A program made the position numbers and the translations under genes. Shown here piece by piece: positions 16,429-42,798 of a stretch of DNA of 50,714 nucleotides (positions within the stretch are counted from its first letter, which is position 1; each line of letters begins with the position of its first letter). This DNA is from a virus. Lineage: Duplodnaviria; Caudoviricetes. Location: IMG/VR virus record IMGVR_UViG_3300032156_000016, positions 1-50,714 of that record. The stretch is one strand, 5' to 3'. A model generated the notes under the pieces. The model made no database searches and was not told the origin of the DNA. It worked only from the letters and a program-made list of their open reading frames with translations.

Positions 16429-16839
16429 ATGTATAATGAAACCATTGAATCGTTACGAGATCAGATGAATATAGACCATACATGCTTAGGGAAATATGCA
16501 CTTGATGGATATATACATGATTTAAAAGCGGCGGTAGCGTTATTATTGAAGGAATATAATAGTAGAAAAACTGAAACGAAAAAAGAAGCGAAAGTAACAA
16601 CTAAAGATAAGGCTACTATTAATGATTTGTTAGAGTTATGTCCCGAAGAACATATGATTGAATTAAGAAAGAAATTTGACGGCGCGAAGATTGGTTCTGT
16701 TGAACGGTGGAAGATAGCGAAAGAAGCGTTAGATTTGACGGTAAATGAAGAAACAGGGAAATGGCGCATTGTTTTAGCGAGTAAGTTGTTGAATGTTTCT
16801 TTTCAGACTTTGTATTCACTTGCAAGAAAGAATAAATGA
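16429..16839 (+). CDS. Fis/NtrC-type HTH protein lacking an AAA+ domain
   Basis: C-terminal ERWKIAKEALDLT...IVLASKLLNVSFQTLYSLARK resembles the Fis-family ER..I..AL....A..LG.SR.TLY pattern. Confidence 0.7.
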   Translation: MYNETIESLRDQMNIDHTCLGKYALDGYIHDLKAAVALLLKEYNSRKTETKKEAKVTTKDKATINDLLELCPEEHMIELRKKFDGAKIGSVERWKIAKEALDLTVNEETGKWRIVLASKLLNVSFQTLYSLARKNK

Positions 16840-16895
16840 TAAATATATGTACGATTCATTGTAGAATTATATGCCAATCGTTCGGCAGCCGCGTG

Positions 16896-16946
16896 GGGCG
16901 GTACTTCAGTTTGGGCGTGCTGAGTACCGCCCTATTTCTTTTCTTT
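16896..16946 (+). terminator. Intrinsic terminator
   Basis: GGGCGGTACT../..AGTACCGCCC stem plus TATTTCTTTTCTTT. Confidence 0.75.
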
Positions 16947-16965
16947 AGTAGAGAGGGATTGTAAT

Positions 16966-25786: not shown

Positions 25787-26071
25787 ATGACAATTCCAAA
25801 CGAAGGAAGAGATATCATTTGGGTTGCAGTTTCCACTGTTGCTTCAATGTTATTAGGATGGTTACAGAAGAAGATTAAGAAACCCGACCCGAAAATTCCT
25901 AATAGTACTATTCCACTTGTGAATACTACTGCATCCGGCGTAGTCGGTACGTTGGCCGGTGGGCCTATCGGTGGATTGTTAGCTATTGGCGGGTCTGTAA
26001 TTGGTAATATTGTTCATGAAGTTTATAAGAGTAGACAGGTCGCTGACGCTGTTACTCCAGATAGTAAATAA
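25787..26071 (+). CDS. Holin-like membrane protein with glycine zipper
   Basis: Hydrophobic segments; GxxxG repeats. Confidence 0.55.
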   Translation: MTIPNEGRDIIWVAVSTVASMLLGWLQKKIKKPDPKIPNSTIPLVNTTASGVVGTLAGGPIGGLLAIGGSVIGNIVHEVYKSRQVADAVTPDSK

Positions 26072-27795
26072 TGAAATCAAATTGGGCATCAAGGAATCTT
26101 ACTTCAGTTGACAGACTGGAGAAGATTCATAATCCTAAGATATTTGCAAAGACATTTGGTTTAAAAGAGCCATTTATGTTTTGTGCGAATGAGGATTGTA
26201 TTTATATGCCCAAGTCAGCGTGTCCTGCTGGTAAGTTGAAAGATTCGTGTCAAAACTGTTCTTCATTAGACTATGCATTTGGATGTGATCACTTTATAGG
26301 TAAGCCCTTTCAATCTGCTGTTCTATCTTCATCTGTATCTGGCAAGTATAATATTATTACTATAGTAACAGGAAGAGGAACCGGAAAATCTAGTGTTATT
26401 AATACACAAAAAGCAATAATGGAATCTACAACAGAGCCGTATATAAGGGCTTACCTATCTAAATCTAGAATTCCAATACCAGCAAAGATTCTTGTTGTTG
26501 GAAATACTAAGGCAACATCTTTATTACTTAGACATTCTATACATAATACATTTCAATCCAGTGAAAGTTTATATAGCTTTGTTAAGGATGATACTAAAAC
26601 TTATATATCTACTAATGATGGATCGTGTGAGATGTTCTTCCTTACTGCCGGAGTGGATGGCCGTGGTCTTCGCGGACATCATGCAGAGGTAGTTCGTAAT
26701 ATAGAAAAGCTTTCTGTTAAATCGACTATAATATTTATACTCGATGAAGGTATGTTTACAAGAGCAACGAATGTTATAAGTGAAGTAATGATGCCATCAT
26801 TACAAGTTGGAAATATATTCTCCCAAGTTCTTACCACCAGTACTCCGTATGGAAACAAAAATGAAATATCAGAAATGCGTAAGAATCCGATAAAGTCTCA
26901 GCTTGATTTACAATTTGCTTCTTACCATAATAGATTTACTAATTTAAAACTATTACATAGTTTAAGAGAAAAGATGGTCAATGCTGGTCAAGGTACTATA
27001 TATAATAGAGAAGTACTTGGCCTTGAAGTATCAGATGATTCATTGTATTGGTCTTTTAAGGTTTGGTCTAAATCAATAGATGATTCAGTTGATTGGCTAG
27101 ACATAGAAGAAGTAGAAGAATTAAAACGGTCTGCTTCTTCTCTTCCTATACCTGGAGCATATTATTGCGGTATTGATCCTAACAAGTTCAGGCAAATACA
27201 AGGTGGAGATTTTGCAGCATATCATTTAGTGCAAGTAACACAAGATAGAAGAAGAGTAAGGGCATTATCTTTTGGAAAGTATTTAATGGATACTGATGAT
27301 AAATTTATTGATAAACTTGAAATAATTAATGATGTGTTTCGTCCAGTATTTTGTGTTGATGAAAATAGTGGATATGCTCAAAAGCTTAGGTCTAGGGGAT
27401 TTGATGTTCGCAACTGTTCTAATAAACGAAGTGAAATGAATCCAGCAATGAGAATTTGGAAACAAGATATCATTGATGGTATATATAAGCAACCATTTTC
27501 TCAAGCATGGGAAGATGAGAGGCAATGTTTCGTTCCAAAGGAAGATGGTATATCAAACATTCCAATATTAGATCATAAAGGAAATTGGGGACAAGGATTC
27601 TCTAGTGATTTAATGAGAAGCTGTGGATATATATATGAACAGTTAGTGAAAGATTATTCAATAGATGGTTCTAGTCAGATTGTCGTACATTCTTTTGAAG
27701 ATAATGTTGATATTGTACGTCCTAATCTTTCCGATAATGTGTTTGATAGAATTCTCAAATCGTCAGAATCAAGATTCACAAGGCTAAAAAAATGA
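26071..27795 (+). CDS. terL: Terminase large subunit
   Basis: Walker A TGRGTGKS, GLRG, Walker B FILDE, TSTP, nuclease GID..D; precedes portal. Confidence 0.9.
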   Translation: MKSNWASRNLTSVDRLEKIHNPKIFAKTFGLKEPFMFCANEDCIYMPKSACPAGKLKDSCQNCSSLDYAFGCDHFIGKPFQSAVLSSSVSGKYNIITIVTGRGTGKSSVINTQKAIMESTTEPYIRAYLSKSRIPIPAKILVVGNTKATSLLLRHSIHNTFQSSESLYSFVKDDTKTYISTNDGSCEMFFLTAGVDGRGLRGHHAEVVRNIEKLSVKSTIIFILDEGMFTRATNVISEVMMPSLQVGNIFSQVLTTSTPYGNKNEISEMRKNPIKSQLDLQFASYHNRFTNLKLLHSLREKMVNAGQGTIYNREVLGLEVSDDSLYWSFKVWSKSIDDSVDWLDIEEVEELKRSASSLPIPGAYYCGIDPNKFRQIQGGDFAAYHLVQVTQDRRRVRALSFGKYLMDTDDKFIDKLEIINDVFRPVFCVDENSGYAQKLRSRGFDVRNCSNKRSEMNPAMRIWKQDIIDGIYKQPFSQAWEDERQCFVPKEDGISNIPILDHKGNWGQGFSSDLMRSCGYIYEQLVKDYSIDGSSQIVVHSFEDNVDIVRPNLSDNVFDRILKSSESRFTRLKK

Positions 27796-29210
27796 GCTTC
27801 ATTTCTGATCTTATGGATAGAATAAGGCCAGTAGAAGTATATCCGGTTGAACCGGATAGTACTAGTAAGTTGGTAGGCTCTGCTGATCCACTTTCGATAT
27901 CTTATGGTTTCTTCAGTAAGATGAATGAAGTAGTAAGAAACTATGATAGATCAAAGTTTCTTGCATCAATAAAAGATATGACTACTGATTTTGCTATAGC
28001 AGATAAAGCATTGGGTAGACTTTGCGAAGATGCTACATGCAAACCAATTTCAGTAGATGCTCCAGGAAGAAGAAAAAGAATTATAGAAGATATGATTAAA
28101 CAAATAGGATACGAAGAACACCGAATGTCATGGATATATGGGATGCTTAGTCAAGGAGATTTATTTTTACAAAAAGAATATGTTAAGTCTGTTCAACCTG
28201 GCAGGATGGCATTTATATCGCGTGTATTAAAAATGCCAACCGAAACAATGATTAGGAATACCGATGATCGTGATGAATTTTATAATCCGAACGAAGCATT
28301 TTATCAAGTAAATGATATATCAAATATGTCTTCTACAATAAAGACTCCATTCTCAATAGGAAAGATACAACACGCCAGAAATGACTGGGAGCGTAGTGAA
28401 TATTTTAGATATGGAAGATCAATATGGCATAGCGCGGTAAGAGTATTTAATATGGCAGTAATGACCCTTGAAGATTCTGCAATACAAAGACATCAAAGTA
28501 CACAGAATGTATTGTGGCATTTTGTTGGCCGTCATTCAGAAACAAGACCAGGCGAAACTGTTATTAATGAATATGCCAGGAGAGTTAAAAACTCATATAC
28601 AGAATCTACTAATCAAATGTTTGTAGATGGAAGTACACAAGTAGAACAAATTGGCGGTACTAAAAATATAATTGGAACCGTAGATGATATCAGATTAATA
28701 CTTTCTATTCTTGCTATTGCTCTTGATTATCCTCTTGATTTATTGAGTGTGGGTTTGACTGGGCAAAGTGGCGGTGAAGAATTGTTTAGGAAAGAAGTAG
28801 TATTAAAAAGAACCGTAGAAAGTATAATCAAAAGAGAAATTAATTATATATTAAAACCACTAATTGATACTGAGCTTCATCTTGCTGGACAAACAGGAAA
28901 GTATAATTTAATTGCATTTCCAGCTTCATTTGAAGATGCAAACAAGAGAGCGACACGCGGCATATTAGAAGTACAAGCTGGATTGAAATCGTTTCAAACA
29001 TATCACGAAGAAAACAATCCAGAAATATCATTTGAAGAAGAACAAAAGAGAATAAAAAAATGGCAAGCATTCAAAAAAGAATTTGAGGTCGAACCCGAAC
29101 CGACAGAGGCTAGTCCATCAGCGGGAGAGCGTGGGGCGACGGCTGATAAAGAAGATCAGCAGCAACGTCTTACCCCTGGTTCTTTAGGTACTGACAATAG
29201 GAGCGATTAA
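27792..29210 (+). CDS. Portal protein
   Basis: Follows TerL; GD.F, YGRS motifs; size. Confidence 0.85.
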   Translation: MSFISDLMDRIRPVEVYPVEPDSTSKLVGSADPLSISYGFFSKMNEVVRNYDRSKFLASIKDMTTDFAIADKALGRLCEDATCKPISVDAPGRRKRIIEDMIKQIGYEEHRMSWIYGMLSQGDLFLQKEYVKSVQPGRMAFISRVLKMPTETMIRNTDDRDEFYNPNEAFYQVNDISNMSSTIKTPFSIGKIQHARNDWERSEYFRYGRSIWHSAVRVFNMAVMTLEDSAIQRHQSTQNVLWHFVGRHSETRPGETVINEYARRVKNSYTESTNQMFVDGSTQVEQIGGTKNIIGTVDDIRLILSILAIALDYPLDLLSVGLTGQSGGEELFRKEVVLKRTVESIIKREINYILKPLIDTELHLAGQTGKYNLIAFPASFEDANKRATRGILEVQAGLKSFQTYHEENNPEISFEEEQKRIKKWQAFKKEFEVEPEPTEASPSAGERGATADKEDQQQRLTPGSLGTDNRSD

Positions 29211-29212
29211 CT

Positions 29213-30583
29213 ATGATAGTTATACCCATGAACGAAATTCATTCTGGAGATACGAAACAAATCGAGCTTGTTGCTGGTGGAAAGGTAGTAGCGAATATCT
29301 CATTAGACAATGGAAGTATAGTTAGTTTTGCTTTTAATGGTTCTGATTGGAACGAAGCTAAAGCTAGAAAATGGATTAAGAATAAAGGAATCAATGAGAT
29401 CATGTATAGAAAGCATAAAGATGGATCGGTTATGATTAACACAATTAGAATGTCTTCTTCTCCAGTATCTTTAATGACTGGTGAGGCGGAAAAAATACTA
29501 GGTTCTGAAGTGTATATGAAGTTAATGAAAATAGAATCTTCGCATGGAAGTGATAAGCCATTCCTTGTTAATAATCTAGCTATGGATTTTAAGGGCGAAG
29601 ATTTTATAGTTGGCAATGGATTGCGTTTTGATCGCAAGAAAACAATTAGGATGATAGACAAGTTTGGTGGACTTCCTATATATCCTGGCCATATTGGTTT
29701 CTTTGAGGGTCACAAGGAACCGATTGGAAATACGGTAAGCCCATATGTAGATGAAGCTGGAAATCCAGCTAATTATATGTACATTTACCCGCATGGTAAC
29801 GGAAAGGTTTATCGAGAGAATCTTCGTATTGCTGAAGCTCAAGGATTGCTCAAGAATTATCCGGTATCAATGGCCGGTCGTCCTATTAAAATGAAGATAT
29901 TGGATGAAGAAGAGCTAAAAGAGTGCGGTTTCAAATTCCATGCTGAGGTTAATGAATGGGAACCGAAGACTATGGATATTGTAATCGAACCAGCATTAGA
30001 AGGAAGCGGCCCTGTTTCAATAGTAAATCAGTTGATATCAGATGATGGAAGGAGACATAAGATGGATGGTTCGATGAGCGAGATTCTCGCTGCTCTTTCT
30101 GATCATTCTGTCATTGCGCTTAGTGATTTAATGAAGGTTGATGCTGTTAAGAAAGCAATAGAATCTTACGTTGAAGAAAGAATTAGTGTATCTAATAACA
30201 CTATTCTTAATGATGAAAAGATTTCTATTATTATGGCATCGAAACTCCCTAAAGATAAACTTGCTTCTCTTGATTTAGTGAAATCTATCGTTGACGAATC
30301 TATCAAATCAAAACTTGAGCAGATTGAATTAACGAGAGATATGGTTACTAAAGTAGCCGCTAACTCTAAGATTGAGTTAAGTAAGACTCAGGAGCTTTTC
30401 CTTCGTGGAAATATTAAGGACGCAATGAGTGAACAAGATGTTCTTAGGATGATCACGAAAGAAAAAGAGACTGGTAATCTTGATAAGGTTAATGAATTCA
30501 CTCTTGAACATAAAGATGCTGAATCATTAGATGGTGTAGTAATCACAGAAGTAACACTTGAAGAAGTAATGAAGCATATCTAA
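29213..30583 (+). CDS. Prohead protease/scaffold fusion
   Basis: GH...PIG, VS, D.V.EPA motifs plus helical C-terminus; between portal and capsid. Confidence 0.7.
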   Translation: MIVIPMNEIHSGDTKQIELVAGGKVVANISLDNGSIVSFAFNGSDWNEAKARKWIKNKGINEIMYRKHKDGSVMINTIRMSSSPVSLMTGEAEKILGSEVYMKLMKIESSHGSDKPFLVNNLAMDFKGEDFIVGNGLRFDRKKTIRMIDKFGGLPIYPGHIGFFEGHKEPIGNTVSPYVDEAGNPANYMYIYPHGNGKVYRENLRIAEAQGLLKNYPVSMAGRPIKMKILDEEELKECGFKFHAEVNEWEPKTMDIVIEPALEGSGPVSIVNQLISDDGRRHKMDGSMSEILAALSDHSVIALSDLMKVDAVKKAIESYVEERISVSNNTILNDEKISIIMASKLPKDKLASLDLVKSIVDESIKSKLEQIELTRDMVTKVAANSKIELSKTQELFLRGNIKDAMSEQDVLRMITKEKETGNLDKVNEFTLEHKDAESLDGVVITEVTLEEVMKHI

Positions 30584-30595
30584 GGAGGGATTACA

Positions 30596-32236
30596 TTGGA
30601 CGGAAAGCCGTTTGTTGGAAGTGAATTTCAAATGATGTCCAATAGAATCGCTTTATGGGATATGCAGAATCCTAATGCCAAACCTAGAGAACGACTTCGC
30701 TTTTTACTTGCTCAATATGAGAAGCATAACTGGGGAGTATCATCTAGGGATTTAGCACTTGGCAAATCAGTTGATTATGTCAAGGATGGGGATAAGTATC
30801 TTAAAGTCGAATCCGATGTTCGTGGATACTTCTACTGCAATCCAAATACAAAAGGCGATCTTCCTGAGTGTCATGTTGAGAGAACTCGGTTCAAACTTGC
30901 TAATGGTAAGAGAATGTCTGAAAAGGAATATCTTATTGATAGTAGGCGTGAACAAGATGGAAGGAACTTTAAATTAACTTATACTATTACTCCTGATGTT
31001 CATACTACTGGAGAGCAAACTGACGTTTCATCTAAGTCAGTTATGGAATCTGCTATTCCTACTGGTTTTGGAAGTACGTCTGGTATTATTACTCCTGTAT
31101 ATATGAATATGCTTATGGAATTAATGTCTCTTCATGCATTTATGACTCCGTTTGTTACTGTTCAGCCAATGCCTAGTATGTCTTTTTACTTTCCTATTAA
31201 GCTTACGAAAGTAGAAAGTGATCCTGATTATCAGCTTGCTTCTAAGCCTACCCCTGAAGGACGAGCCGGTATGAGTGGATATGAAATTGACTGGACAAAA
31301 TGGGAAGTCAATGGATGGAAATATCTTCGTCATTTTGAACTTACAGATGAAATATCTGAACTTATGGGTCAGTTTTTACCTGTTACTCAAAAGTATATTG
31401 AAGATATGGGTATTGGAATGGCGATGCTTTGGGACTATTCAATCGTTGAGGGTATGCAGCAAATGTTATTATCTGGGTATTGGAGATATCCTAAATATAC
31501 TGCTGGTACTCCTGGTGATTATGCATGGGTAGTCAATGAGAAAGAAATTCCGTGGGGTAAAGCAAGCGTACTAACGACAAATGCAAAATATAATTATTTA
31601 TTTCAAGACCTTAGTGGTGGAACTTATGATGGAAAAATTTATTATCCAGGTTCAACCACCGGAGATGAATTCGAGTATCAGACATCTGGATATGCGCGTT
31701 TGCAGACTACCACAGCAGACGATCTTATTGAAGGAATTCTTGCTTTGGGTACATTGCTTAAGAATAAGGGTTCTACTCTTGAGTATGTTATCCTTACTGA
31801 TTCCTTACAAACAGAGAGGCTTTTTAGGGATGCTAATATGAGGAACCTACAGATTCGTACTGGCGATCTTAAGTTCCAAGATGCTACTGGATATCTTGGC
31901 AAGCTCGCTATTGGTGGATCGGTTTCTTATGTTGATCTTTGGGAAGCTCCTGTTGGACATATTCCTTCGCGTGCTACTACTGACGCTGCTCCTATTACTG
32001 TCTATCCTATTATTGGTGGAAAGTATGGGATGGCATGGAATCAAGGAATCTTTAGTCCATTAACAATGAGAATTGATGAAGGGTTTGAAGCAGTAGCAGA
32101 CGCGGGTTCTGTTGCTCGTCTTCGTCCTACTCAGTCAAAGGTTACGACGGCTTCTAGTAAGGGGTCGTCATGGCCTGGAGATTATCATCATTTAGTTATT
32201 CTCTGGACAAGTAATACTACTCGTCTTAGTGCTTAA
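30596..32236 (+). CDS. Major capsid protein (HK97-like) with N-terminal extension
   Basis: G.ITP, V.VQPM, EG, EL.DE patterns; synteny; AAGGAGG SD with TTG start. Confidence 0.75.
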   Translation: MDGKPFVGSEFQMMSNRIALWDMQNPNAKPRERLRFLLAQYEKHNWGVSSRDLALGKSVDYVKDGDKYLKVESDVRGYFYCNPNTKGDLPECHVERTRFKLANGKRMSEKEYLIDSRREQDGRNFKLTYTITPDVHTTGEQTDVSSKSVMESAIPTGFGSTSGIITPVYMNMLMELMSLHAFMTPFVTVQPMPSMSFYFPIKLTKVESDPDYQLASKPTPEGRAGMSGYEIDWTKWEVNGWKYLRHFELTDEISELMGQFLPVTQKYIEDMGIGMAMLWDYSIVEGMQQMLLSGYWRYPKYTAGTPGDYAWVVNEKEIPWGKASVLTTNAKYNYLFQDLSGGTYDGKIYYPGSTTGDEFEYQTSGYARLQTTTADDLIEGILALGTLLKNKGSTLEYVILTDSLQTERLFRDANMRNLQIRTGDLKFQDATGYLGKLAIGGSVSYVDLWEAPVGHIPSRATTDAAPITVYPIIGGKYGMAWNQGIFSPLTMRIDEGFEAVADAGSVARLRPTQSKVTTASSKGSSWPGDYHHLVILWTSNTTRLSA

Positions 32237-32245
32237 CTAATGATT

Positions 32246-32308
32246 GGGAATGTGGGAGAGGGCAATGTATCCTCCTAATAATACATTTCTTCGCCCTCTC
32301 CCCTTCCC
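32246..32308 (+). ncRNA. Post-capsid hairpin with anti-SD loop
   Basis: GGGAGAGGGC/GCCCTCTCCC plus AATGTAT/ATACATT; loop CCTCCTAATA. Confidence 0.6.
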
Positions 32309-32331
32309 TACTAATATAAAGGTGGTAAATC

Positions 32332-32592
32332 ATGGCCGGTGGACACATGACTTTTCTAGCAATATGGACAGGTCGTGGGAAGAGACAGAAGAAGTTTGTC
32401 AGAGGAAGAGTGCTTAACTTATATGGAATGAAACTTGAGTTAAATAAAAAGACAATTCTTACTAGTGCATTTGTAGAGGCGTGTAGTCTTGATACGGTAG
32501 CTACACATGATGCAGTAAAAGAAAATCTAAGAACAGATTACGGAATAACAATTCTAAAGCCTATTTCTCCGTTAGATGCAGAGGTTGGTTAG
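32332..32592 (+). CDS. Hypothetical protein
   Basis: AAGGTGG SD. Confidence 0.65.
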   Translation: MAGGHMTFLAIWTGRGKRQKKFVRGRVLNLYGMKLELNKKTILTSAFVEACSLDTVATHDAVKENLRTDYGITILKPISPLDAEVG

Positions 32593-32594
32593 TA

Positions 32595-33509
32595 ATGTTA
32601 AGACAATCTTTGTTTACCGATTTAGTTAATGAAGTAAAAGATAATATAGCTGATGTTACAGGTCAGGAAAAGTATAATCCACAGTATATAATGAAGGAAA
32701 TAAAAAGATGTTTGGGCGATCTTCCTTTAGTATATGGACTATCTAATAATACTAGAGTGTCATTTTTATTCGAGCCAATTAGTATGACAGATGTTCTACT
32801 ATATAATAAAGACGTATATGAAAATGCATCTAACATAGAAGTAAATTATTATTTAAAATTATCTAATATTGCATTGCCTGGCCATATAGAATGCAAAGCA
32901 TGGACTATTAATAGTATGAGCCTTGCATTATTAACGCTTAGATGGAATCAAACTGGTACTATAAAGCCACCCACTATTGATATATCATTAGATAAAGATG
33001 TAACTTCTGGTGATTACTTATCAGGAACATGGTTAGTAAGTGGGGCAAGAATAGACCCAATAGTATCGGATAAAGAAATTGACTTAACAGCTTTTCCTTC
33101 CTCCAGTTTTTCTATTAGGTGGAATTTTGAAGCAACATCGGATTATAAGATTCATGATACTATGGCTGACATTGTTCTTATTGATAGAGCAAGATTAATG
33201 GAACATAAAGAGAATATTGTGTATACATGCGCTTCAAATATCTATTCAAAAGAAGCGGCAATAGAAGCAAAGAATGGTGCAATACAGTATGCAGAATTTT
33301 TGAGTAAACAATCAGAGTTATTACTTGCAAGAGCTAAAGGCAGTCGTGGTGGCGGTAAAAGTGTTTCAGTATATGCTGATTCAATGGATAGTGGGTATGA
33401 TAGAGATACTAGATCAAATAAAGTATTTGGACGTAAACTAGAAGCTGGAGATTGGGTAGAGATAGTCGGTAATACAGTAATTGGAAGGCGTATTAGAAGG
33501 ATTTATTGA
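32595..33509 (+). CDS. Head-tail adaptor-like protein
   Basis: Synteny after capsid. Confidence 0.5.
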   Translation: MLRQSLFTDLVNEVKDNIADVTGQEKYNPQYIMKEIKRCLGDLPLVYGLSNNTRVSFLFEPISMTDVLLYNKDVYENASNIEVNYYLKLSNIALPGHIECKAWTINSMSLALLTLRWNQTGTIKPPTIDISLDKDVTSGDYLSGTWLVSGARIDPIVSDKEIDLTAFPSSSFSIRWNFEATSDYKIHDTMADIVLIDRARLMEHKENIVYTCASNIYSKEAAIEAKNGAIQYAEFLSKQSELLLARAKGSRGGGKSVSVYADSMDSGYDRDTRSNKVFGRKLEAGDWVEIVGNTVIGRRIRRIY

Positions 33510-34084
33510 TGCTTCAAGCAACAAATCAAGTTATAACTGTTAGATTCAAAAGAGAGGATATCATTTTAGTAATGAAAGTAGTTAAGGGCGCGTGTAATAT
33601 GTCTCATATATTTAATTCAACAGAGTTACACGGAGATTATCAGAGAGCATTTAGAATGATGCGCGATACTACAATGGTTGCTACTGGAGAACTAAGAAGC
33701 AAAGCTTTCATAACTAGATCAATAGAAGGAACTGGAGCTAAATTTGTAATGGGATATGATAGAACTTCTAATAATCAATCAGAGTTACAAGAATTTGAAG
33801 GTGGAAGAGTACATAGAACAGAGAAGTCTCATTATTTTAATGGCGTATATCCAATGTGTTCGAGATATCCAGAAGATTTATTTAAGAAGTTTGGTGGGTA
33901 TACTTCTAATCCAAGAGCTTCAAGAAGAGCTATGGCAACGTCAATACAAATAGCATTTAACACAAGAGTAAGAAGCGCAACAAGAAGTGGAAGTGATTTA
34001 TATTATACTCCAAATCTTTCATTATATGTAATGAGAAGAGCAGATAGAACAGCCAAACTATTTAAGACGGTTGGTTTAACATGA
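33506..34084 (+). CDS. Neck/tail-completion protein (HK97 gp10-like)
   Basis: V.TGELR motif; basic; synteny. Confidence 0.55.
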   Translation: MMLQATNQVITVRFKREDIILVMKVVKGACNMSHIFNSTELHGDYQRAFRMMRDTTMVATGELRSKAFITRSIEGTGAKFVMGYDRTSNNQSELQEFEGGRVHRTEKSHYFNGVYPMCSRYPEDLFKKFGGYTSNPRASRRAMATSIQIAFNTRVRSATRSGSDLYYTPNLSLYVMRRADRTAKLFKTVGLT

Positions 34085-34635
34085 GTATAGAGGCAATACA
34101 TTCTTACCAAGTATGCATTGGTGATGAATTTATTTATAATGTTAAGTGGACTATCTTATCTCATCTAAGATATATGATGTTATCTGAACCACTCAATTAT
34201 ATTTGGGGAGAAGAGAGATTATCGGATGAAAGTTTTGTAGATTCTACTCCAGCTAGGTTATCATCAAGGCCATTATTCGGAGTAGAGTTTATGGGGTTGG
34301 AGAGAGTAATAGCCAAGAATACTTTTAATGAAGGATTAGTATTTGTAATATCATATAGATCAAGGCGTGGTAATGTAAGACTGGAATCAGAATATGGAAC
34401 TATTAGTGATAGTAGAAAACTAATATTAATACACGATACTATAATTACTAATTTTGGTATGCTTAGTGGTGAAAATAAATTAGAAGTATGGGATTTTAGA
34501 TCAGAAGCAGACATACCAAGAAAACTAAACAAACTTATTAAGATGGATTTACGCGAGTCTTCATTCGACATGGATGAAGTAACTGGCGAACGTGCTAATG
34601 GAGTAGACTTTGTATATGCAGTTAATGAAGGTTGA
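34081..34635 (+). CDS. Putative tail terminator
   Basis: Synteny before tail tube. Confidence 0.5.
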   Translation: MSIEAIHSYQVCIGDEFIYNVKWTILSHLRYMMLSEPLNYIWGEERLSDESFVDSTPARLSSRPLFGVEFMGLERVIAKNTFNEGLVFVISYRSRRGNVRLESEYGTISDSRKLILIHDTIITNFGMLSGENKLEVWDFRSEADIPRKLNKLIKMDLRESSFDMDEVTGERANGVDFVYAVNEG

Positions 34636-34729
34636 TCTGTCCACCAACATAGATCGATATTGCTATAGTCTATTTAATTCCGGCCAACTTAATTGTAGTG
34701 AATTGACACCCGAAAGGAAGGATAGATAG

Positions 34730-35731
34730 ATGAAGACGAAACCTTTCTCTCCGGTGCCTGGACTGGCAGAGAATACATATGTATATGTATTTAACTATGC
34801 CGGTAGTGAAATTGATTTCGTTGCTGACAAGGCAGCATATTTAGCTGAATTAGACAAACATTTTGCAGGTTCATCTGCTTATACAGGGATGAAAGAAAAT
34901 GGTATCGCTGTAACTGGTACTGCTGTTGCTGGCGTTGATCTTACTGTTGGTTCTTCTGGTAATAACGCAACAATAGCTATTGGCGCAGGAGCAGTAGTTA
35001 CTACAGCTATGCAATATGGTTCTGAATCAGCCAAGAAGATTATTCCAATTGTTTTGTATAAAGGTTCTGCTGTTCCGTTTAGTGATTATGTTTTGATTGA
35101 TGAAGCTACCTCAAAAATTACATTAAAGAATAGTGTAATTAATGTTCCTTATAGCACTACGTCAGCAGTAGATTATATAATATATTGGTCTGATCATTTG
35201 TCGGGATATCTTGTCAGTATTGAAGCTCCTAATATTTCATTACCGATTGAATCATCTTCGTTTAGTGCCGTTGGCCATTCTGAGCCAGTCATTAAAATTA
35301 CTAAACGTGGAGAGCCAGAGGCAACCGGAAGTTTGACTGTCATGGAACACATGACGGCATTCATGGATAGTACTAATGCTTTACTTAACGTGCCAGGTGA
35401 AGAGTTACTTTATCGTATTTATGGGCCTGATTGGACTACTCCTAGTAACGCAGGATATACTCAATCACTCTGGAATACATTAAAGGCTCCGACTAGACCG
35501 TTCGGTATTGCTATCTTAACTGTTACCGGCAATCCGTTTGATGGTGGATCAACCGCTTATCAGAACAAGCTTTGGGGAACAATGAACTTTATCTACCATT
35601 GCAAGGTAACAAGCATTGGCCCAAAGCAGAATATTTCTAATGACAGTACCGATCCCATTCTTCGGACTGTTGAATTTACTTGTGCATGGCCCGACCAGAA
35701 TGCTCAGACTAGTATTCTGTGCGGCGTTTAA
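34730..35731 (+). CDS. Major tail (tube) protein
   Basis: Synteny upstream of chaperone and tape measure; composition. Confidence 0.7.
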   Translation: MKTKPFSPVPGLAENTYVYVFNYAGSEIDFVADKAAYLAELDKHFAGSSAYTGMKENGIAVTGTAVAGVDLTVGSSGNNATIAIGAGAVVTTAMQYGSESAKKIIPIVLYKGSAVPFSDYVLIDEATSKITLKNSVINVPYSTTSAVDYIIYWSDHLSGYLVSIEAPNISLPIESSSFSAVGHSEPVIKITKRGEPEATGSLTVMEHMTAFMDSTNALLNVPGEELLYRIYGPDWTTPSNAGYTQSLWNTLKAPTRPFGIAILTVTGNPFDGGSTAYQNKLWGTMNFIYHCKVTSIGPKQNISNDSTDPILRTVEFTCAWPDQNAQTSILCGV

Positions 35732-35762
35732 TGTTCTCTAAGTAATAAAGCAGGAGGATACC

Positions 35763-36236
35763 ATGAGTAGCGAAGTAAAAATTATTTCTATTGGAGATTA
35801 TGTCAAAGATGTTGATAACATCATTACGATTCCCGTAATGCAAAAGAGCCAAGTCTATAATGTTGAACTAAGAATTAAGAAACCTATGGCAGAACATTCG
35901 CATAGGATTATGAATCTCTTAGCTGAGACATTTGGAGATAGATTAGAATCTCTTGCTAATCGTGGAGAGATAACAAATATAATGACATTACCATTAGAAG
36001 AACGCAAGGAAGTATTATTATTTTCTTGGCTTAACTCTGCTACTTTGATATCCTCCTGCTGTTATCATCCAGATCGCAATGAGGATGGTACTCCTATTGA
36101 CGATCCGCGTAGAATTTGGGAAACGGCAGATGAAGTAGGTAAACAATGCCCTAAAGATTTGTTTGATGGGATTAGATCATATCTTGAAGGCGTTGGTATA
36201 GATAAAACAGTAAGCGAAATCGAAGCAAAAAAATAG
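35763..36236 (+). CDS. Tail assembly chaperone (gpG-like)
   Basis: Ends GCA-AAA-AAA-TAG slippery site; upstream of tape measure. Confidence 0.85.
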   Translation: MSSEVKIISIGDYVKDVDNIITIPVMQKSQVYNVELRIKKPMAEHSHRIMNLLAETFGDRLESLANRGEITNIMTLPLEERKEVLLFSWLNSATLISSCCYHPDRNEDGTPIDDPRRIWETADEVGKQCPKDLFDGIRSYLEGVGIDKTVSEIEAKK

Positions 36237-36625
36237 CACGCCACCCGATTGTACGACTGGCCTACATGATGTGCAAGCATGGTCATTCAGGTGGCAAGAA
36301 TTTATTTGAGGTTTTGTATTGTAGGCCGTACATACCACTCGATTATAATTTACAAAGAATAATAGTAGAGTGTATATCATATGATAGTGACATAGAGGCC
36401 GACCACTATGAGCAAGCAAGAACTATTCAAAATGACTCTAATGAGAAATATATAGTAAGAAGTAAAAAGGGAGTGAGAGAACTAAGAAGTGAATTGAAGA
36501 TGGCAACAAAATATCCTCAGTATGTAAATGCTGAAGTCACGCTCCTAACTACAAAGGAGTACAATAGCATTGGTAAATCCGCGAATTACTATAGAGACAT
36601 TACTTCAGCGCGTACAGCCAGGTGA
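36227..36625 (+). CDS. -1 frameshift extension (gpGT-like)
   Basis: A-AAA-AAA at 36227-36233; -1 frame is open from the slip site (KIARHPIVRLAYMMCK...) to 36625. Confidence 0.8.
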   Translation, partial: KKIARHPIVRLAYMMCKHGHSGGKNLFEVLYCRPYIPLDYNLQRIIVECISYDSDIEADHYEQARTIQNDSNEKYIVRSKKGVRELRSELKMATKYPQYVNAEVTLLTTKEYNSIGKSANYYRDITSARTAR

Positions 36626-39600
36626 TATTAACGCACTAGAGCGGCAGCTTGCTTCTGTTTCGGCTTCGTCAAATGTCGGGATGAAGGCTTTGACGGACAA
36701 ACAGTTAATAGCTGCCGCTTCTGTTCAAGAACTTTCGCGTGCGTATAGCTTAGGGCTTAATCGACAAATGATAGTCAATTCCGCTAAAGTAAGAATAGCT
36801 ACTGGCGAAATAGCCGATATGAGAGAAGGATTACAATTAACTAGTATTGTACTAAAGAATATGTCTACTCCTCTTGGTATGCTAAATGCCGCTCTTAATA
36901 TTGTTATATCACGATTCGGAACTATGGTTCTTGTATTCGGTGTTTTCAGAGCTATAAGTAGTTTTATCGCAAGAATGAAAGAAGGTTTTGAGGCAATAGA
37001 TTCTGAAATGAGAAAGGTAGCTTCTGTTGTTATTCCCACCAGTGGTGATATGTCAAAGGCCATGACGACTCTTGGTATTGACATGATTACATTTGCAATG
37101 AAGACCGGCGTAGCATTGAAAGAGGCCGGAGATGCTATGTACTATATGGCATCTGCTGGAATGCAATCAGATAGAATTCATCGCAACTTTATACCAGTAA
37201 TGAAGTTGATTATATCTACATCAAAAGATTTAGCTGCTACTACAGAAGAAACTAAAAAAGTATCTGAAATCTTCATGGGATTAGTAAAAGTATTTGGAGA
37301 AGATGTATATCCAAGATTTAATAGCGAACAAAAAGCTACTGAGTATATGGCTGGAGTTATGTATAAGACATTTCAAAGAGAACAAATATTACTTGAAGAA
37401 CTTGCAATGAGTTTGACCTATTCTTCAGAAGAAGCACATAAAGCTGGAATATCATATGAAGAATTAGTTGTTACATTAGGATTTCTTAATACTTATATGC
37501 TTAAAGGATCGAAAGCTGGAACATCATATGCTAATTCTATTCGCGATGCAATACAGAATGCAGATAAACTTCAGTCTGTGTTTGGTGTTAATCTAAAGAA
37601 TGTTGGACAAGAAGGGTTTAGTTTTATTAATGAAGTTATTGTTCCTCTTAATAAGAAGTTTAAGGAGACTGGATTTAACTTAAAAACAATAACCGACTTG
37701 ATGCAAATATGGAATCTTCGATCTATTAGAGCTATGTCATTAATGATTTCGCTTGCTGACCAATTAAATATTAAATTAAATGATGTTGTTACTGGCGAAG
37801 AGGCTATGAATAAAGCGTTTGAGATTATTAATGATAGTTATAAAATACAGAAGCAAAGAACAGATGCATTAACTAATGCATATGCAACTATGTTTGCTGT
37901 TGGAATTACTGGAGGAAAGGGATTTGGATTAGTATTAAAAGATATTAATAATAATTTGGAACATACCGATAGGGTTATGGCTAGACTTGCGGCTACAATT
38001 GGTATGTGTGTAGTAATGTTGAAAAGCATATTTAAACTTTTGTTTGAAATCATAAGACTACCAGGAAAAGGATTAGATTTAATACTTAAAATTAATCAAC
38101 GCTTAGAAAAAACATTAAGTATCTTTAGTAAGATTAATGAATTTAATAAAAATTTACATGAGTGGATAAATCTTATTGGTTGGGCAGAGAAACTAGCAGA
38201 AAAATTATCTATTGTTGGAGATAAAACAGGAAACATATATAGATTAATAAAATATGCAAAAGGTGATATGTCTAAACTTGTTGAAGTGGTAAGTGATATT
38301 ACTCCAGAAGCAGAAAAAGCACTTAAAAAATTTCAGGAGTTTGAGGATACCACTGATCATGTGGCCGATTCTGTTCGATCATGGAATACATTATTAGATA
38401 GTAGTTATAAAATAGTAAGTAAGATATCTGGTGTGAGAATTACTGGACAGGAATTAACTACTGATCTAAAGGCTAGTCTTGCTAGTCAGAAACAATTTGC
38501 AGTAGAACTTTCTAAAACCTATGGGGCTATGTATGATTCTGGTCTTTCTGGAGCAGAGAATTATCAAGATGTTCTTAATAAGGTAACTGATTTAATAAAG
38601 AAACAGAGTATAGATTTAACTGTTCTTGGTGCAGCAGAAGCAAATCAGCTTAATCAATTATTTGACGCCCTTGAGAATTCTTCTTCTACTGCTGCTAAAG
38701 CACTAAGAGATACATTTACTGTGGAGAAAAAGACAAGAGCAGAATCTATTCATGATTTAGATATATCATTAAGAAATAAATTGCAATTATTAGATACTGA
38801 GTATCAAGCAGAATTACAGAAGCTAGATTTATTCCAAATAGACAAAGATATTCTTGAAATGAAACATCAGAGAGATAGAACCATTGCACTTGAAGAGTGG
38901 CTTAAATCCCTTAGTGAATTGAACATTCAATATTTAGATAAGTTAATATCAGATATGCAATCTAAATGGGATAAGATAGATTCACAATTCAAGAGATTTC
39001 GCGAGAACTTTAATAAACATATACTTGGGATTCCGTTAAGCGATATTACTATTGATCTTGGATTCAAGATTAATTGGGATATGATTGTTCCACCAGATAT
39101 GAGTCAATTTCAGAAAGAGATATATGAATCTCTAGCTTTATTTGAAGTTAAAGATGATCTTGAAACAGCGTGGAAAACAGATATAGCAGATATAATTGAT
39201 GCTGGACTTTCTATAATGAATGAGAATGTAAGAACCAGGGGAAGGGAAAGAGCTAAACTTACCGAAGATCAAGAAGAACTAATAAGAAATATGTATTATG
39301 CTTCAATGAAAGACATAAACGCGATGATTGAAGCTAAATATAAGGAACGCGGGAAAATATTACTAGATAGTTTATATGAATTTATTGATGCATCAAAAGA
39401 ATTTAACGAAGAACAAAAGAGACTTTCCAAGGCTGTGTTAGGCGGGATTTCCATTACAGACGAAGAAAGAAGAAAAGGAACTAAAGCGTTAGACGAAATC
39501 ATGTCGGGACAAAATCAAACAATGAAGGATGCCATATTACAAGTTAGATCATTGGGCGAAGAGATGGATGCTATCAAAAAGAAACTTGGTGATTTGGGTC

Positions 39601-40199
39601 TTAGTGATGTATGGGAGCAATTGGCAGTATCACTTGGAATTATTACTGCTGGAGTAAGAGAAGACCGCAAAGAATTAGAAGATTTTACTAGAAAGTGGGA
39701 AGGGATAAATGATGCAATAAGTAATACAATAAGAATCTTTAGTAGTTTAGCAACCATAATGGATGCTGATATAAGTCCAGCCACAGAAAGATTTTTAAAA
39801 ATAATGGATGCGCTTGCTGGTACAATTAATGATGTCACTGGTGCTATGGAAAGATTAAAAGATGCTAAAATAAAAGATGATATATTTGGACAAATAGCAG
39901 GAATTACTGGAATTATATCTGGAGTAGCCGGTGGAATAGCTGCAATATTCAGTGCTATGCATAAAGAAAAAGAAGACATAGAGAAACTTGCACAAGAATA
40001 TATACCAGAAGATTTTACAAAACAAATCGCTCCAGACTTCGGACAAGCGAGAGTAATTCAAAATAGGATCACTCTTCAGCCAGTCTTTCAATTCTTAGAT
40101 GCTGAACAGTTGACTCCAGCACGGCAGAGAAGTCTTGCCGAAACTATTTGGGATGAATTAGTAGAGATATCCAAATCAAAGGGTGAGGCATTTGTCTAA
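36570..40199 (+). CDS. Tape measure protein
   Basis: 1209 aa, helical; Y.MASAG, GI.YEE, KGSKAGTS TP901-type motifs. Confidence 0.9.
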   Translation: MVNPRITIETLLQRVQPGDINALERQLASVSASSNVGMKALTDKQLIAAASVQELSRAYSLGLNRQMIVNSAKVRIATGEIADMREGLQLTSIVLKNMSTPLGMLNAALNIVISRFGTMVLVFGVFRAISSFIARMKEGFEAIDSEMRKVASVVIPTSGDMSKAMTTLGIDMITFAMKTGVALKEAGDAMYYMASAGMQSDRIHRNFIPVMKLIISTSKDLAATTEETKKVSEIFMGLVKVFGEDVYPRFNSEQKATEYMAGVMYKTFQREQILLEELAMSLTYSSEEAHKAGISYEELVVTLGFLNTYMLKGSKAGTSYANSIRDAIQNADKLQSVFGVNLKNVGQEGFSFINEVIVPLNKKFKETGFNLKTITDLMQIWNLRSIRAMSLMISLADQLNIKLNDVVTGEEAMNKAFEIINDSYKIQKQRTDALTNAYATMFAVGITGGKGFGLVLKDINNNLEHTDRVMARLAATIGMCVVMLKSIFKLLFEIIRLPGKGLDLILKINQRLEKTLSIFSKINEFNKNLHEWINLIGWAEKLAEKLSIVGDKTGNIYRLIKYAKGDMSKLVEVVSDITPEAEKALKKFQEFEDTTDHVADSVRSWNTLLDSSYKIVSKISGVRITGQELTTDLKASLASQKQFAVELSKTYGAMYDSGLSGAENYQDVLNKVTDLIKKQSIDLTVLGAAEANQLNQLFDALENSSSTAAKALRDTFTVEKKTRAESIHDLDISLRNKLQLLDTEYQAELQKLDLFQIDKDILEMKHQRDRTIALEEWLKSLSELNIQYLDKLISDMQSKWDKIDSQFKRFRENFNKHILGIPLSDITIDLGFKINWDMIVPPDMSQFQKEIYESLALFEVKDDLETAWKTDIADIIDAGLSIMNENVRTRGRERAKLTEDQEELIRNMYYASMKDINAMIEAKYKERGKILLDSLYEFIDASKEFNEEQKRLSKAVLGGISITDEERRKGTKALDEIMSGQNQTMKDAILQVRSLGEEMDAIKKKLGDLGLSDVWEQLAVSLGIITAGVREDRKELEDFTRKWEGINDAISNTIRIFSSLATIMDADISPATERFLKIMDALAGTINDVTGAMERLKDAKIKDDIFGQIAGITGIISGVAGGIAAIFSAMHKEKEDIEKLAQEYIPEDFTKQIAPDFGQARVIQNRITLQPVFQFLDAEQLTPARQRSLAETIWDELVEISKSKGEAFV

Positions 40200-42798
40200 T
40201 CAATTAAAGATCGGTGGAGATCGTCCAATACCATTTATATTTGCAAGTATGAATTATGCATCGTTATCTAATGGTGCTACTGTAACCGATGCTACTTCTG
40301 GAACAGCAGACTTTGATTCTCTGTATCCATTAGAAAATATGTTTAAACCCAACAAGCATTCTTTCACCAGAATGTCAGGACTAGCATCTCGAACTGGTAA
40401 TCATATAACAATTAGACTTAATCTTTCTGCTACTATATTTGCCACTAGTGCCGGAGTAGATGGAGAACTTAATTTAGTGTGTGTTGATAGTAATTTATTT
40501 AATGGAGTTAGGGCATTTAGATTAAGATCATATACCGATGCTAACTATAGTGCTAATGTTGTATACCATACCAATAGCGCAATATCTATCGACTCTGGAT
40601 TTTTTAAGTATGGAGCGGAACCAAGAATTGATACTAAACAAGGGCATAGAGCATTCTACGATTTGTGGGGAACTGGAGGAAATAAGAATACGTTCGATGG
40701 ATTTGATGGGAAGAATTCTGTAATACTATTATCTAATGGAATACAATATGATCATCCATACGTCGTACTCGAACTGATAGCTGGTTCGTATAATATGTTT
40801 GGACACGATGGAACATTTGATAATGGACTTTGGGATTCTGCGTGGAGAGATTATGCAAAGACTACTAGACAAAATAACACAGATGAGAATTCAAACTGTT
40901 CTCATCAGGTGTTAGGTACAACTTTACCATGTACTACTAATCATGGCACTACAGACAATTATATATATCTTTCTAGTACTAGTAAGACAGTACATCAAAC
41001 TACTGAATGGATTAGAATACCCATGAGAAGTAATCACGAATATGTACTAAAGTTTTGGGAAAAAACCATTGGCACTGAAAGTAGCGGAAGACACCCATAT
41101 GAGATAGAAGCTGTTGTTAACCCACTCTTTTATAGTAGCGGTGGAAAATATCAAGAGCTAAACAAAAGAGACATATGGTTTGATCACGGAGAACTGAGTA
41201 GCAATATTTATTATGTGGAGACAGAAGAAGCCTCTCCATATAATACTATTATATATAAATATAATGAAGAGGGAGGTTCGTCTTATACTCTTAAGCCAAG
41301 TGGAGCGAGTTATAAGTATTGTAAGGTTGACGAGAGTAATGGTGTTATGTTTTATGTGTGGAATAATGTAATATGCAAACTTAATCTATCTACGCTTAGT
41401 ATTACTCAAATTAAGAATGTCGGAGCGGCCATAGGTGGAATCGCATTAGATAGGTCTGGTAAGAAAGTATATTATACAGTTACGGGAAGCTCGACAATGT
41501 ATTGTGTCGGGTATGATTCTCCATATACTACTGTACAAATAACAATTACTGGTCTTTCTAGTCCATATGGGTTGTGCCTAGATATAACTGGAAACAAGAT
41601 TTATTGGATTAATGGTACTTCGATATGGAAATGTAATCTTGATGGAAGTAGTCCAGCATCGGTGGTATCAGTCACATCTGGTTCATATAATATAGATGTA
41701 GATTTAACTAGTTCTCCAAACAAATTATATTGGACTGATACTACTAATGATCGAATTAATAGAATTAATGTTGACGGTACTACCAACGAAATATTTGCGA
41801 CAGAACTTAGTCAAGTTACAGATGTATCAATTCCAGAGAGCGGAACATATTGTTATTATTCTACTAAAGGTAACAGTGATATAAAGAAAAGTCTCAGGTC
41901 TGCATCTGCGCCAAGAGAACAATTTCTAGTTATGTCTGGAGTGAATACAGTATTCCAATTACATAAGATGATCGGGTCTGAGCATACATCATGGACTCAA
42001 AGCGTTTTATACTTTAACATTTTAGATTCAGATAATACTAGAGTAATATTTCATTCAATAGCAGGAGCCACTCCAGCTACAGATATTGGATATGTAAAGT
42101 TTAATCCAGATCGAATCGGAACATTAATGGATGTATGGATTAGATTTAAAATATATAATCAGATTAACTTTTCTCCATCATCATATCAATGGTACATTGA
42201 TGAACTTGAATGTTATGATGCTAATAAATTCTTTCCTCCAGAAACTTATGAGTATGTAAGAATTAAGAAATCTGCATCTGAATTTCTTGATAAGAATCTA
42301 CCGAACAGTCACGATTTCACTGGCTCTGCTGACATAGCAAGATTTGGTTTGTTCTCTTTTAAGTTTGCTTTATCTTCATCAGCCAGAAAATCACAATTAT
42401 TACAAGACCTTGCTGGAAATTCGGGGATTATAACTAATATACAAGATACTGTTGAGGGCGGTGTCACATCTAATAATGTTCATGGAGATGTAGTTGGTAC
42501 ATTTATATCATCATCTGGAACAAAGAGAGCATTTAATATTGATACATTAGGCAACGCAATATGGAAAGCATACCTTGAAAGTACTTGTTCTATTTCTAAA
42601 ACTATTACTATCATAGACCCAAAGGGAGAGTTTACTGAATGTATTATACTTCCTGGTTCTATCCAATCTGTCAATACGGACACACAGAGCGAAACTGTAG
42701 AAAAAGTTTCGTTTACTCCACCAATAAGCGATACTTATAAAGTTAGAAGTGCATTAGAATATATGTATCAAATTACTTTTACGGCGAAGGAAGTATAA
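40183..42798 (+). CDS. Tail protein with inserted YWTD-type beta-propeller
   Basis: GIALD..KVYYT, GLCLD..KIYWI, IDVD..KLYWTD repeats; follows tape measure. Confidence 0.75.
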   Translation: MRHLSNQLKIGGDRPIPFIFASMNYASLSNGATVTDATSGTADFDSLYPLENMFKPNKHSFTRMSGLASRTGNHITIRLNLSATIFATSAGVDGELNLVCVDSNLFNGVRAFRLRSYTDANYSANVVYHTNSAISIDSGFFKYGAEPRIDTKQGHRAFYDLWGTGGNKNTFDGFDGKNSVILLSNGIQYDHPYVVLELIAGSYNMFGHDGTFDNGLWDSAWRDYAKTTRQNNTDENSNCSHQVLGTTLPCTTNHGTTDNYIYLSSTSKTVHQTTEWIRIPMRSNHEYVLKFWEKTIGTESSGRHPYEIEAVVNPLFYSSGGKYQELNKRDIWFDHGELSSNIYYVETEEASPYNTIIYKYNEEGGSSYTLKPSGASYKYCKVDESNGVMFYVWNNVICKLNLSTLSITQIKNVGAAIGGIALDRSGKKVYYTVTGSSTMYCVGYDSPYTTVQITITGLSSPYGLCLDITGNKIYWINGTSIWKCNLDGSSPASVVSVTSGSYNIDVDLTSSPNKLYWTDTTNDRINRINVDGTTNEIFATELSQVTDVSIPESGTYCYYSTKGNSDIKKSLRSASAPREQFLVMSGVNTVFQLHKMIGSEHTSWTQSVLYFNILDSDNTRVIFHSIAGATPATDIGYVKFNPDRIGTLMDVWIRFKIYNQINFSPSSYQWYIDELECYDANKFFPPETYEYVRIKKSASEFLDKNLPNSHDFTGSADIARFGLFSFKFALSSSARKSQLLQDLAGNSGIITNIQDTVEGGVTSNNVHGDVVGTFISSSGTKRAFNIDTLGNAIWKAYLESTCSISKTITIIDPKGEFTECIILPGSIQSVNTDTQSETVEKVSFTPPISDTYKVRSALEYMYQITFTAKEV

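Follow-up and report, generated by a model that had tools for sequence, protein, structure and literature searches.

The hairpin after the putative capsid gene

The subject of this analysis is a hairpin that directly follows the putative major capsid gene of an uncultured phage and that carries CCUCCU, an anti-Shine-Dalgarno (anti-SD) core, in its loop. The window, by which we mean the whole stretch of DNA that was analysed, is a complete virus record (IMG/VR record IMGVR_UViG_3300032156_000016) of 50,714 bases with 37% G+C, and positions are those of the window unless another sequence is named. Genes on the minus strand, among them those for a DnaG-type primase and a PD-(D/E)XK nuclease, occupy the window up to ∼16 kb, and a long plus-strand block from ∼17 to 47.6 kb contains the terminase large subunit gene (phrog_2, E 1.3e-9) and the virion genes; the hairpin is inside this long, uniformly plus-strand late gene block. 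No resemblance to the window was found among 50,697 named phage records, either by DNA (megablast) or by capsid protein (tblastn). The stretch is present in two DNA sediment runs, and the contigs from these runs show zero differences.

The hairpin is an imperfect stem-loop of 63 nt on the plus strand (32246-32308), which begins 10 nt past the capsid stop codon and ends 23 nt before the next ATG. At its foot, GGGAA (32246-32250) pairs with TTCCC (32304-32308) and the G at 32252 pairs with the C at 32303; above these, GGGAGAGGGC (32254-32263) pairs with GCCCTCTCCC (32293-32302), and the inner stem is formed by AATGTAT (32264-32270) and ATACATT (32281-32287). The apical loop of 10 nt (32271-32280) reads CCTCCTAATA (also written CCUCCUAAUA), and it joins a 5′ arm rich in G and other purines to a 3′ arm rich in C and U. 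The predicted minimum free energy is −33.4 kcal/mol (z −3.98), none of 200 shuffled sequences folded as well, and the hairpin ranks second in stability among the 10,129 70-nt plus-strand segments of the record. The first-pass annotation, which was made from the sequence without database searches, had proposed this hairpin, and our folding agrees with it; its coordinates and counts were all correct. Its observation that CCTCCT is exposed in the loop holds as well: the probability of being unpaired averages 0.98 over CCUCCU (32271-32276, plus strand), which starts 35 nt after the capsid stop codon, and opening it costs 0.08 kcal/mol. Across the late region, the sense strand has no second exposed CCUCCU; a further copy (at 36052) is mostly paired.

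The hairpin is not a canonical intrinsic terminator, since the stem is not followed by a U tract (the sequence directly 3′ of it in the window is CTACTAATAT, and there is likewise no T run at this place in the three related phages described below) and since a terminator scan of positions 26000-45000 called nothing at the hairpin. Terminator features that would mark the proposed mRNA 3′ end at the hairpin were thus not found. For a T7-type RNase III processing site, the criterion is an imperfect duplex stem at least about 20 bp long, and by that criterion the stem, with 23 pairs in the window and 22-27 in the relatives, has the look of a substrate for a double-strand RNase; the stems also qualify as GC-rich hairpins.

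The gene upstream of the hairpin (30596-32236, plus strand; stop codon at 32234-32236) encodes a protein of 546 aa from a TTG start and is probably the capsid gene, a label for which we have leads of several kinds. The open reading frame (ORF) follows the terminase large subunit gene; it has no match in Pfam or PHROG, and a search based on language-model features gave Phage_capsid_4 and SU10_MCP as the best clusters (0.96). The AlphaFold2 model of the protein is poor (predicted local distance difference test score, pLDDT, 59.2), and its best Foldseek rows are HK97-type capsid proteins with a weak E value (1.4e-3). Downstream of the hairpin, the next gene (32332-32592, plus strand) encodes an 86-aa protein with a basic N-terminal region, and its SD sequence, AAAGGTGG, stands ∼10 nt past the hairpin.

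The hairpin and its loop hexamer in related phages

The capsid protein has 18 homologs in a collection of 5.8 billion proteins, and the closer ones (P0002-P0009) are 48-55% identical. Scans of IMG/VR for relatives found only one contig, G001, while two scans of genome contigs found no prophage relatives. G001 is itself a complete IMG/VR record (50,071 bases, with a terminal repeat), and it is the same phage as metagenome locus L002. A metagenome scan gave five loci and added two new phages, L004 and L005; loci L006 and L008 are G001 again (L002 and L006 have 0 mismatches in 2734 nt), and L007 does not contain the region and stands outside the conservation count. Conservation was therefore counted over the four distinct phages with readable DNA after the capsid gene, that is, the window, G001, L004 and L005. 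The capsid protein of the window is 37-41% identical to those of the other three phages, which are 50-63% identical to one another.

All four phages have a long hairpin at the equivalent position. In each case it begins 10-25 nt past the capsid stop codon and ends 17-31 nt before the start of the gene for the small basic protein, it has a G/purine-rich 5′ arm and a C/U-rich 3′ arm, it lacks a U run, and it carries CCUCCU at its apex. The apex sequences are AUCCUCCUA in the window, AUCCUCCUCGGC in both G001 and L004, and GCCCUCCUCGGC in L005, and CCUCCU is the sole hexamer common to all four apical regions. When the apical regions were shuffled, no hexamer of any sequence was common to all four in any of 200,000 trials; in the most conservative version of this test, in which the three relatives were counted as one lineage, the shuffled window apex contained CCUCCU in 1564 of 200,000 trials (0.8%). 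The unpaired probability of CCUCCU is nearly as high in L005 (0.97) as in the window, and is 0.58 in both G001 and L004. The G001 hairpin is the most stable of the 10,001 segments of that genome. Conservation of the loop, by which the first-pass annotation had proposed to check its reading, is thus what we find in four of four phages.

The stems themselves have diverged such that they cannot be aligned column by column. In an alignment of the three relatives, 8 of 24 pairs show double (compensatory) changes; the four-sequence MAFFT alignment shifts the window loop by 3 columns. The four hairpins appear to be homologous by their position, architecture and loop hexamer, rather than by a significant match to a model. 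The same design recurs in three distant relatives, so we regard the hairpin as probably a genuine element of regulation. It matches no described RNA family: Rfam 15 covariance models gave 0 matches at E ≤ 1 in 23,950 bases, searched on both strands, of loci L001, L002, L004 and L005.

The flanking genes are conserved along with the hairpin. The window, G001 and L004, three of the four phages, keep the strong SD sequence of the capsid gene, UAAGGAGGG. The capsid start codon is TTG in the window (30596), in L004 (1785) and in L005 (about 3911), and ATG in G001; for the virion protein with the highest abundance, TTG is an unusual start. The small downstream protein is found in all four phages with a length of 81-103 aa and a basic N-terminal patch (G-K-K..K-R). 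We considered it as a candidate RNA binder; the 86-aa protein has no PHROG match, and its AlphaFold2 model (pLDDT 68.2) has no Foldseek match at E ≤ 0.001.

We also considered whether the hairpin region is translated. Each of the four phages has a short plus-strand ORF that starts at the 5′ foot of the hairpin (32240-32278 in the window, ∼838 in L002, ∼3430 in L004 and ∼5557 in L005), with ATG in three of them and GTG in L005, and those of G001 and L004 finish at or beside the start of the next gene. These ORFs were not taken to encode a conserved peptide, because CCTCCT is read in three different phases and because three of the four lack an SD sequence; indeed, the peptides themselves are not conserved. 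Similarly, a read-through extension of the capsid protein was rejected, as the frame runs into a stop 13 codons on in the window and 3 codons on in G001.

Complementarity of the apex to start regions

The apex of the window hairpin is complementary to more than an SD core. The 15-mer CAATGTATCCTCCTA (32263-32277, plus strand), part of which (32264-32270) is paired within the inner stem, is the complement of TAGGAGGATACAATG in 14 of its 15 nt; TAGGAGGATACAATG is the identical SD-plus-ATG unit of two minus-strand genes. A pattern scan with TAGGAGGATACAATG bore out this claim of the first-pass annotation: the scan gave exact matches at 2347-2361 and 8189-8203 (both minus strand), a match with 1 mismatch at 32263-32277 (minus strand), and a match with 2 mismatches at 35751-35765 (plus strand), which makes 4 matches at ≤2 mismatches compared to 0.17 expected from shuffles. 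The site at 2347-2361 comprises the SD and ATG of an 81-aa ORF (2104-2349), with a duplex energy of −21.6 kcal/mol. This ORF had been labelled a helix-turn-helix gene, and it does have a match to the winged helix-turn-helix family HTH_35 in Pfam (E 1e-4), albeit one below the curated cut-off (22.6 versus 25 bits). The site at 8189-8203 comprises the SD and ATG of a 63-aa ORF (8000-8191), which has no family match, with a duplex energy of −22.1 kcal/mol.

Two further sites that had been pointed out are also present. Ten contiguous bases of CAGGAGGATACCATG, the SD and ATG (35751-35765, plus strand) of a 157-aa gene (35763-36236) located upstream of a 1209-aa ORF, are complementary to the hairpin, with a duplex energy of −17.7 kcal/mol and a net energy of −1.1 kcal/mol; this gene, which had been called a chaperone gene, has no Pfam or PHROG match. 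The start region of the capsid gene itself, AGGAGGGATTACATTG (30583-30598, plus strand, from the SD through the TTG), forms a bulged duplex with the apex at −18.4 kcal/mol (net −2.6 kcal/mol after opening costs), the third best of 71 start regions.

The two early genes are the best of these 71 start regions by duplex energy. To assess chance, we kept the CCUCCU core fixed, shuffled the flanks of the apex in 1000 controls, and compared each control with the 71 start regions. The best duplex energy of −22.1 kcal/mol was reached by 23 of the 1000 controls (control mean −17.3) and 14 of 15 matches by 14 of the 1000, with the limit that these P values are nominal, as they are uncorrected for the free search of the whole 50-kb window from which the match came. 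Moreover, a large part of the duplex energy would be spent on opening the partners: opening costs +11.1 kcal/mol for the hairpin segment, 7 of the extra pairs requiring that the inner stem be opened, and +6.5 to +7.0 kcal/mol for the early targets, such that the net energy is −4.0 kcal/mol for each of the two sites.

Several SD sequences of this phage appear to have a feature in common beyond the core. Among six start regions with GGAGG, five go on with AU to give GGAGGAU (17830 and 18040 on the plus strand, 2104 and 8000 on the minus strand, and 35763 on the plus strand), and the capsid gene has GGAGGGAU. The extended SD sequence GGAGGAU fits AUCCUCCU of the hairpin better than it would fit the canonical 16S tail.

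If the hairpin were antisense to particular genes, its flanks would be expected to track their start regions in the relatives. In G001, the best pairing of the apex with 77 start regions is −23.1 kcal/mol, compared to a flank-shuffled expectation of −23.2 (P = 0.50); the excess over shuffled controls is thus a nominal one in the window that G001 does not repeat. Neither ORF 2104-2349 nor ORF 8000-8191 has a G001 homolog at E ≤ 1e-3, and therefore these two target genes cannot explain the conservation of the element. ORF 8000-8191 sits between two genes whose G001 homologs adjoin one another, and it has the look of an inserted, moron-like gene. Read from the sequence, only the window hairpin is antisense to a whole unit of SD, spacer and start codon, while the apices of the relatives are not. 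Nor does the site of the 157-aa gene qualify as a conserved partner: 10 nt are complementary in the window and G001, but only 5 nt in L004 (GGAGGTGA).

The pairing of the capsid start region with the apex, relative to flank-shuffled controls, is −18.4 kcal/mol in the window (P = 0.050), −16.7 in L004 (P = 0.24), −10.8 in G001 (P = 0.99) and −10.6 in L005 (P = 0.49, for a capsid start that was perhaps taken 24 nt too far upstream in this test), with a combined Fisher P of 0.245; complementarity of more than 6 bp is found only in the window and partly in L004. The co-variation of loop and ribosome-binding site that would have spoken for specific antisense pairing was not seen: the core never varies and hence cannot co-vary with a binding site, and the flanks do not follow one. 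What is conserved in these sequences is a generic anti-SD rather than an antisense to particular genes, and silencing of the early genes by the hairpin is weakly supported.

Possible roles of the hairpin

We tentatively favour, as plausible rather than probable, the explanation that the hairpin is an intercistronic stem-loop of the late mRNA, a barrier to decay or a site of processing, with a generic anti-SD loop that acts mainly in cis. The very stable stem of ∼23 bp could separate the capsid cistron, for which demand is heavy, from the genes further along that are needed at low copy, either by blocking 3′ exonucleases or by serving a double-strand RNase; the usual rationale of a hairpin after a capsid gene is that the capsid message is more abundant than the messages of its low-copy neighbours. 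The apical CCUCCU, the same hexamer as the 16S anti-SD core, would pair with strong SD sites of the AGGAGG type, since an exposed and conserved CCUCCU on a late polycistronic RNA is most simply an element that pairs with SD sequences on that RNA. The partner would most probably be on the same transcript, either the SD of the next gene, 45-60 nt away, or UAAGGAGGG of the capsid gene, and such pairing in cis would tune translation or decay. The longer match to the starts of the two early genes is specific to one phage and would be at most a secondary, lineage-specific use. The sequences show the fold and its exceptional stability, the exposed loop, the complementarities, and that position, architecture and hexamer are kept in four of four phages; action as an RNA, pairing of the loop with SD sequences in vivo, a preference for cis over trans and the direction of the effect are what we infer from them.

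A number of observations weigh against this explanation. Some concern the conservation of the fold: the evidence consists of four sequences only; a covariance model built from the three relatives ranked the window hairpin first on the minus strand (E 0.57) and third on the plus strand (E 2.6), neither of which is significant; RNAalifold on the MAFFT alignment of the three relatives gave a covariation term of +1.45, that is, no support; and the L005 hairpin is unexceptional for its composition (z −1.50, with 17 of 200 shuffles folding as well). Others concern the loop and its partners. In G001 and L004, the hexamer is partly paired and costs 3.5-4.0 kcal/mol to open; pairing with the SD of the next gene amounts to only 5-6 bp; in L004 this SD, only ∼4 nt beyond where the stem ends, is seemingly too near for contact with the apex, judging from the geometry; and the start regions of 7 late genes shared among the loci have no complementarity to the flanks beyond the core (Fisher P 0.20-0.98). 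For the window hairpin, the minus-strand fold is the more stable one (−35.6 versus −33.4 kcal/mol), and there is no RNA run among the runs listed as holding the stretch. Finally, in Bacillus subtilis, anti-ribosome-binding-site 8-mers had little of their effect left when they were flanked by two segments able to pair or by two hairpins (PMC12697547), and because of these insert results the position in a loop may shield the motif rather than present it.

The first-pass annotation had proposed action in trans: the hairpin, on the capsid mRNA or released from it, would be an RNA directed against ribosome-binding sites that represses ORFs 2104-2349 and 8000-8191, with CCUCCU(A) as the toehold and subsequent opening of the inner stem. 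The part of this proposal that stands is the anti-SD loop, which is conserved in all four phages, and the complementarity described above, with the two proposed targets at the top of the 71 start regions, a nominal excess over controls, and a 7-nt seed (UAGGAGG with CCUCCUA) that falls wholly within the exposed loop; C-rich hairpin loops that target SD sequences are, moreover, known in small RNAs of Staphylococcus (PMC2790875). The part that the relatives do not bear out is the link to particular genes, as the flanks track no binding site and the targets are without G001 homologs. When we add that the site is on only two of the minus-strand genes, that the net energy after opening is small, that terminator features marking a 3′ end are missing and that the P values carry no correction for the free search, we consider this proposal unlikely. 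A broader version is, in our view, also rather unlikely: the capsid mRNA of these uncultured sediment phages would carry an anti-SD mimic that captures AGGAGG-type sites in trans on early phage mRNAs, and possibly on host mRNAs, such that the accumulating capsid message shifts translation away from them, and in the window the flanks would have become further adapted to the 15-nt start of two early genes. A role without any pairing partner, be it as a terminator (leaky or dependent on a factor), as an attenuator or as a stabiliser of the 3′ end, in which CCUCCU is kept for loop geometry or for its C/U-richness, fits several facts. Hairpins and terminators after capsid genes are ordinary in tailed phages, gene 13 of SPP1 being an example (PMC6316719), and in six Pseudomonas phages most of the mapped 3′ ends were at stable structures, with 84 of 268 being predicted intrinsic terminators (PMC10914365); in our four phages, the 3′ half of the hairpin is C/U-rich throughout, and L005 has two more copies of CCUCC in the 3′ arm. 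However, composition does not lead one to expect the same apical hexamer in four of four phages, the conserved hexamer is precisely the anti-SD core, for which the prior is, by our own arithmetic, 1 in 4096 for a given hexamer, and there is no U tract; we therefore regard a purely structural role as doubtful, if less so than action in trans.

The loop could instead be recognised by a protein or mimic the ribosome, either as an operator for a phage protein such as the adjacent small basic protein or as a copy of the 16S 3′ end by which a factor able to bind or cleave this sequence is titrated. Such a site would account for a loop sequence that is kept while the stems diverge, the small protein with its basic patch is encoded by the very next gene in all four phages, and AUCCUCCU, found in three of the four loops, resembles the 16S 3′ end; but nothing ties the small protein to RNA binding, since it has neither a family nor a fold match, and we judge a site of this kind improbable. 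Far less credible still is a signal on the minus strand or in the DNA, namely a ribosome-binding site and TTG that open a very small ORF on the minus strand, or a cruciform or a site for a protein in the DNA. The window does read TAGGAGGATACATTG followed by a frame of 10 codons on that strand, where its fold is slightly the more stable. In G001, L004 and L005, however, no start codon stands at a usable spacing after GAGGAGG and the peptides would be unrelated, so we rejected a minus-strand mini-ORF or gene start here; in three of the four phages it is the plus strand that folds more stably, and the surrounding late block is uniformly on the plus strand.

The components of the favoured cis-acting element have precedents. 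In B. subtilis, anti-SD-like sequences located hundreds of nucleotides away, including one site in a 3′ untranslated region (UTR), pair with the SD in cis and reduce the level and lifetime of the mRNA as well as its translation, and such sequences are depleted from genes (PMC12697547, bioRxiv 2025). That system is like ours in its pyrimidine-rich motif, and because the motif is normally selected against, a conserved copy is noteworthy; it differs in that the sequences studied were engineered 8- to 12-mers in reporters, and in that the effect was largely lost between pairing segments or hairpins (PMC12697547), which is the situation here. The icaR mRNA of Staphylococcus aureus is the closer case: the motif UCCCCUG in its 3′ UTR, again a pyrimidine-rich anti-SD motif downstream of the coding region, pairs with the SD of the same mRNA, and the duplex is proposed to block initiation and to feed RNase III, for which it is a substrate (PMC3868564). 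There, both the partner and the effect were shown experimentally, on a monocistronic mRNA with a long 3′ UTR (PMC3868564), whereas here CCUCCU is at the apex of a 23-bp intercistronic hairpin in a phage late operon and is known from sequence alone. [quoted passage not shown]

For pairing in trans, the staphylococcal Rsa RNAs are like the hairpin in that an unpaired C-rich motif in a hairpin loop seeds the pairing with an SD; they differ in being separate, stable small transcripts with verified targets (PMC2790875), whereas the extended match here is nominal in the window and absent in G001. For the position of the hairpin, the comparison is with SPP1, whose capsid gene 13 ends at 8777 and is directly followed by a predicted terminator (8775-8815) with a short stem and a U run (PMC6316719). 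It too is a stable stem-loop next to the major capsid gene, within or at the end of a late transcription unit, and would set the level of capsid mRNA relative to the genes downstream. The hairpins described here differ in their stems of about 23-30 bp, in the lack of a U run and in the conserved loop with its anti-SD.

Further cases are T-phi and the RNase III sites of T7 for the stem-loops of tailed phages, and RNAIII for the staphylococcal regulatory RNAs with C-rich hairpin loops. With P22 sar, the P1/P7 c4 RNA and T4 RegB, a phage acts on the ribosome-binding sites of its own earlier genes. Both sar and c4 are antisense RNAs made for that purpose, each matching one target at length or at multiple places, and RegB is a protein nuclease that cuts GGAG; none of these is known as a loop on a capsid mRNA, and Rfam, whose curated families include phage RNAs, gave no match to the hairpin. 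A stem-loop after a capsid gene is thus of a known kind, as are anti-SD motifs that act in cis (icaR) or in trans (the C-rich loops of small RNAs). What appears to be new is the combination, an anti-SD hexamer at the tip of a very stable hairpin after the capsid gene of uncultured sediment phages, which is not in Rfam and of which we found no description in open-access papers and bioRxiv.

Anti-SD-like sequences are normally purged from bacterial messages (PMC12697547), because they pair with ribosome-binding sites and make the mRNA less stable, yet four phages with little other similarity in nucleotide sequence retain one directly downstream of the late gene whose expression is heaviest, which points to an undescribed RNA element of phage late operons. 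If the loop does pair with SD sites, it would be a compact and portable module that sets expression ratios within an operon, and if the bolder proposal of capture in trans holds, it would shut earlier messages down. Because the proposed interaction is simple Watson-Crick pairing of 6-15 bp, it can be tested directly with reporters.

Other structured RNAs were noted in passing. In G001, a hairpin at reversed coordinates 35136-35205, with arms that hold GACATCCTCC and GGAGGATGTC, precedes, on the early strand, a run of T and a start codon GTG; the structure resembles a terminator and would in addition sequester an SD-like run. The sole tRNA of the window record is a tRNA-Leu with anticodon TAA (12185-12270, minus strand). 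The most stable 70-nt fold on the plus strand of the window (16891-16950, −36.2 kcal/mol) consists of a GC hairpin with a T-rich run behind it, located between the short plus-strand genes at 16227-16839 and the gene at 16966, and, unlike the hairpin after the capsid gene, it looks like a classical intrinsic terminator.

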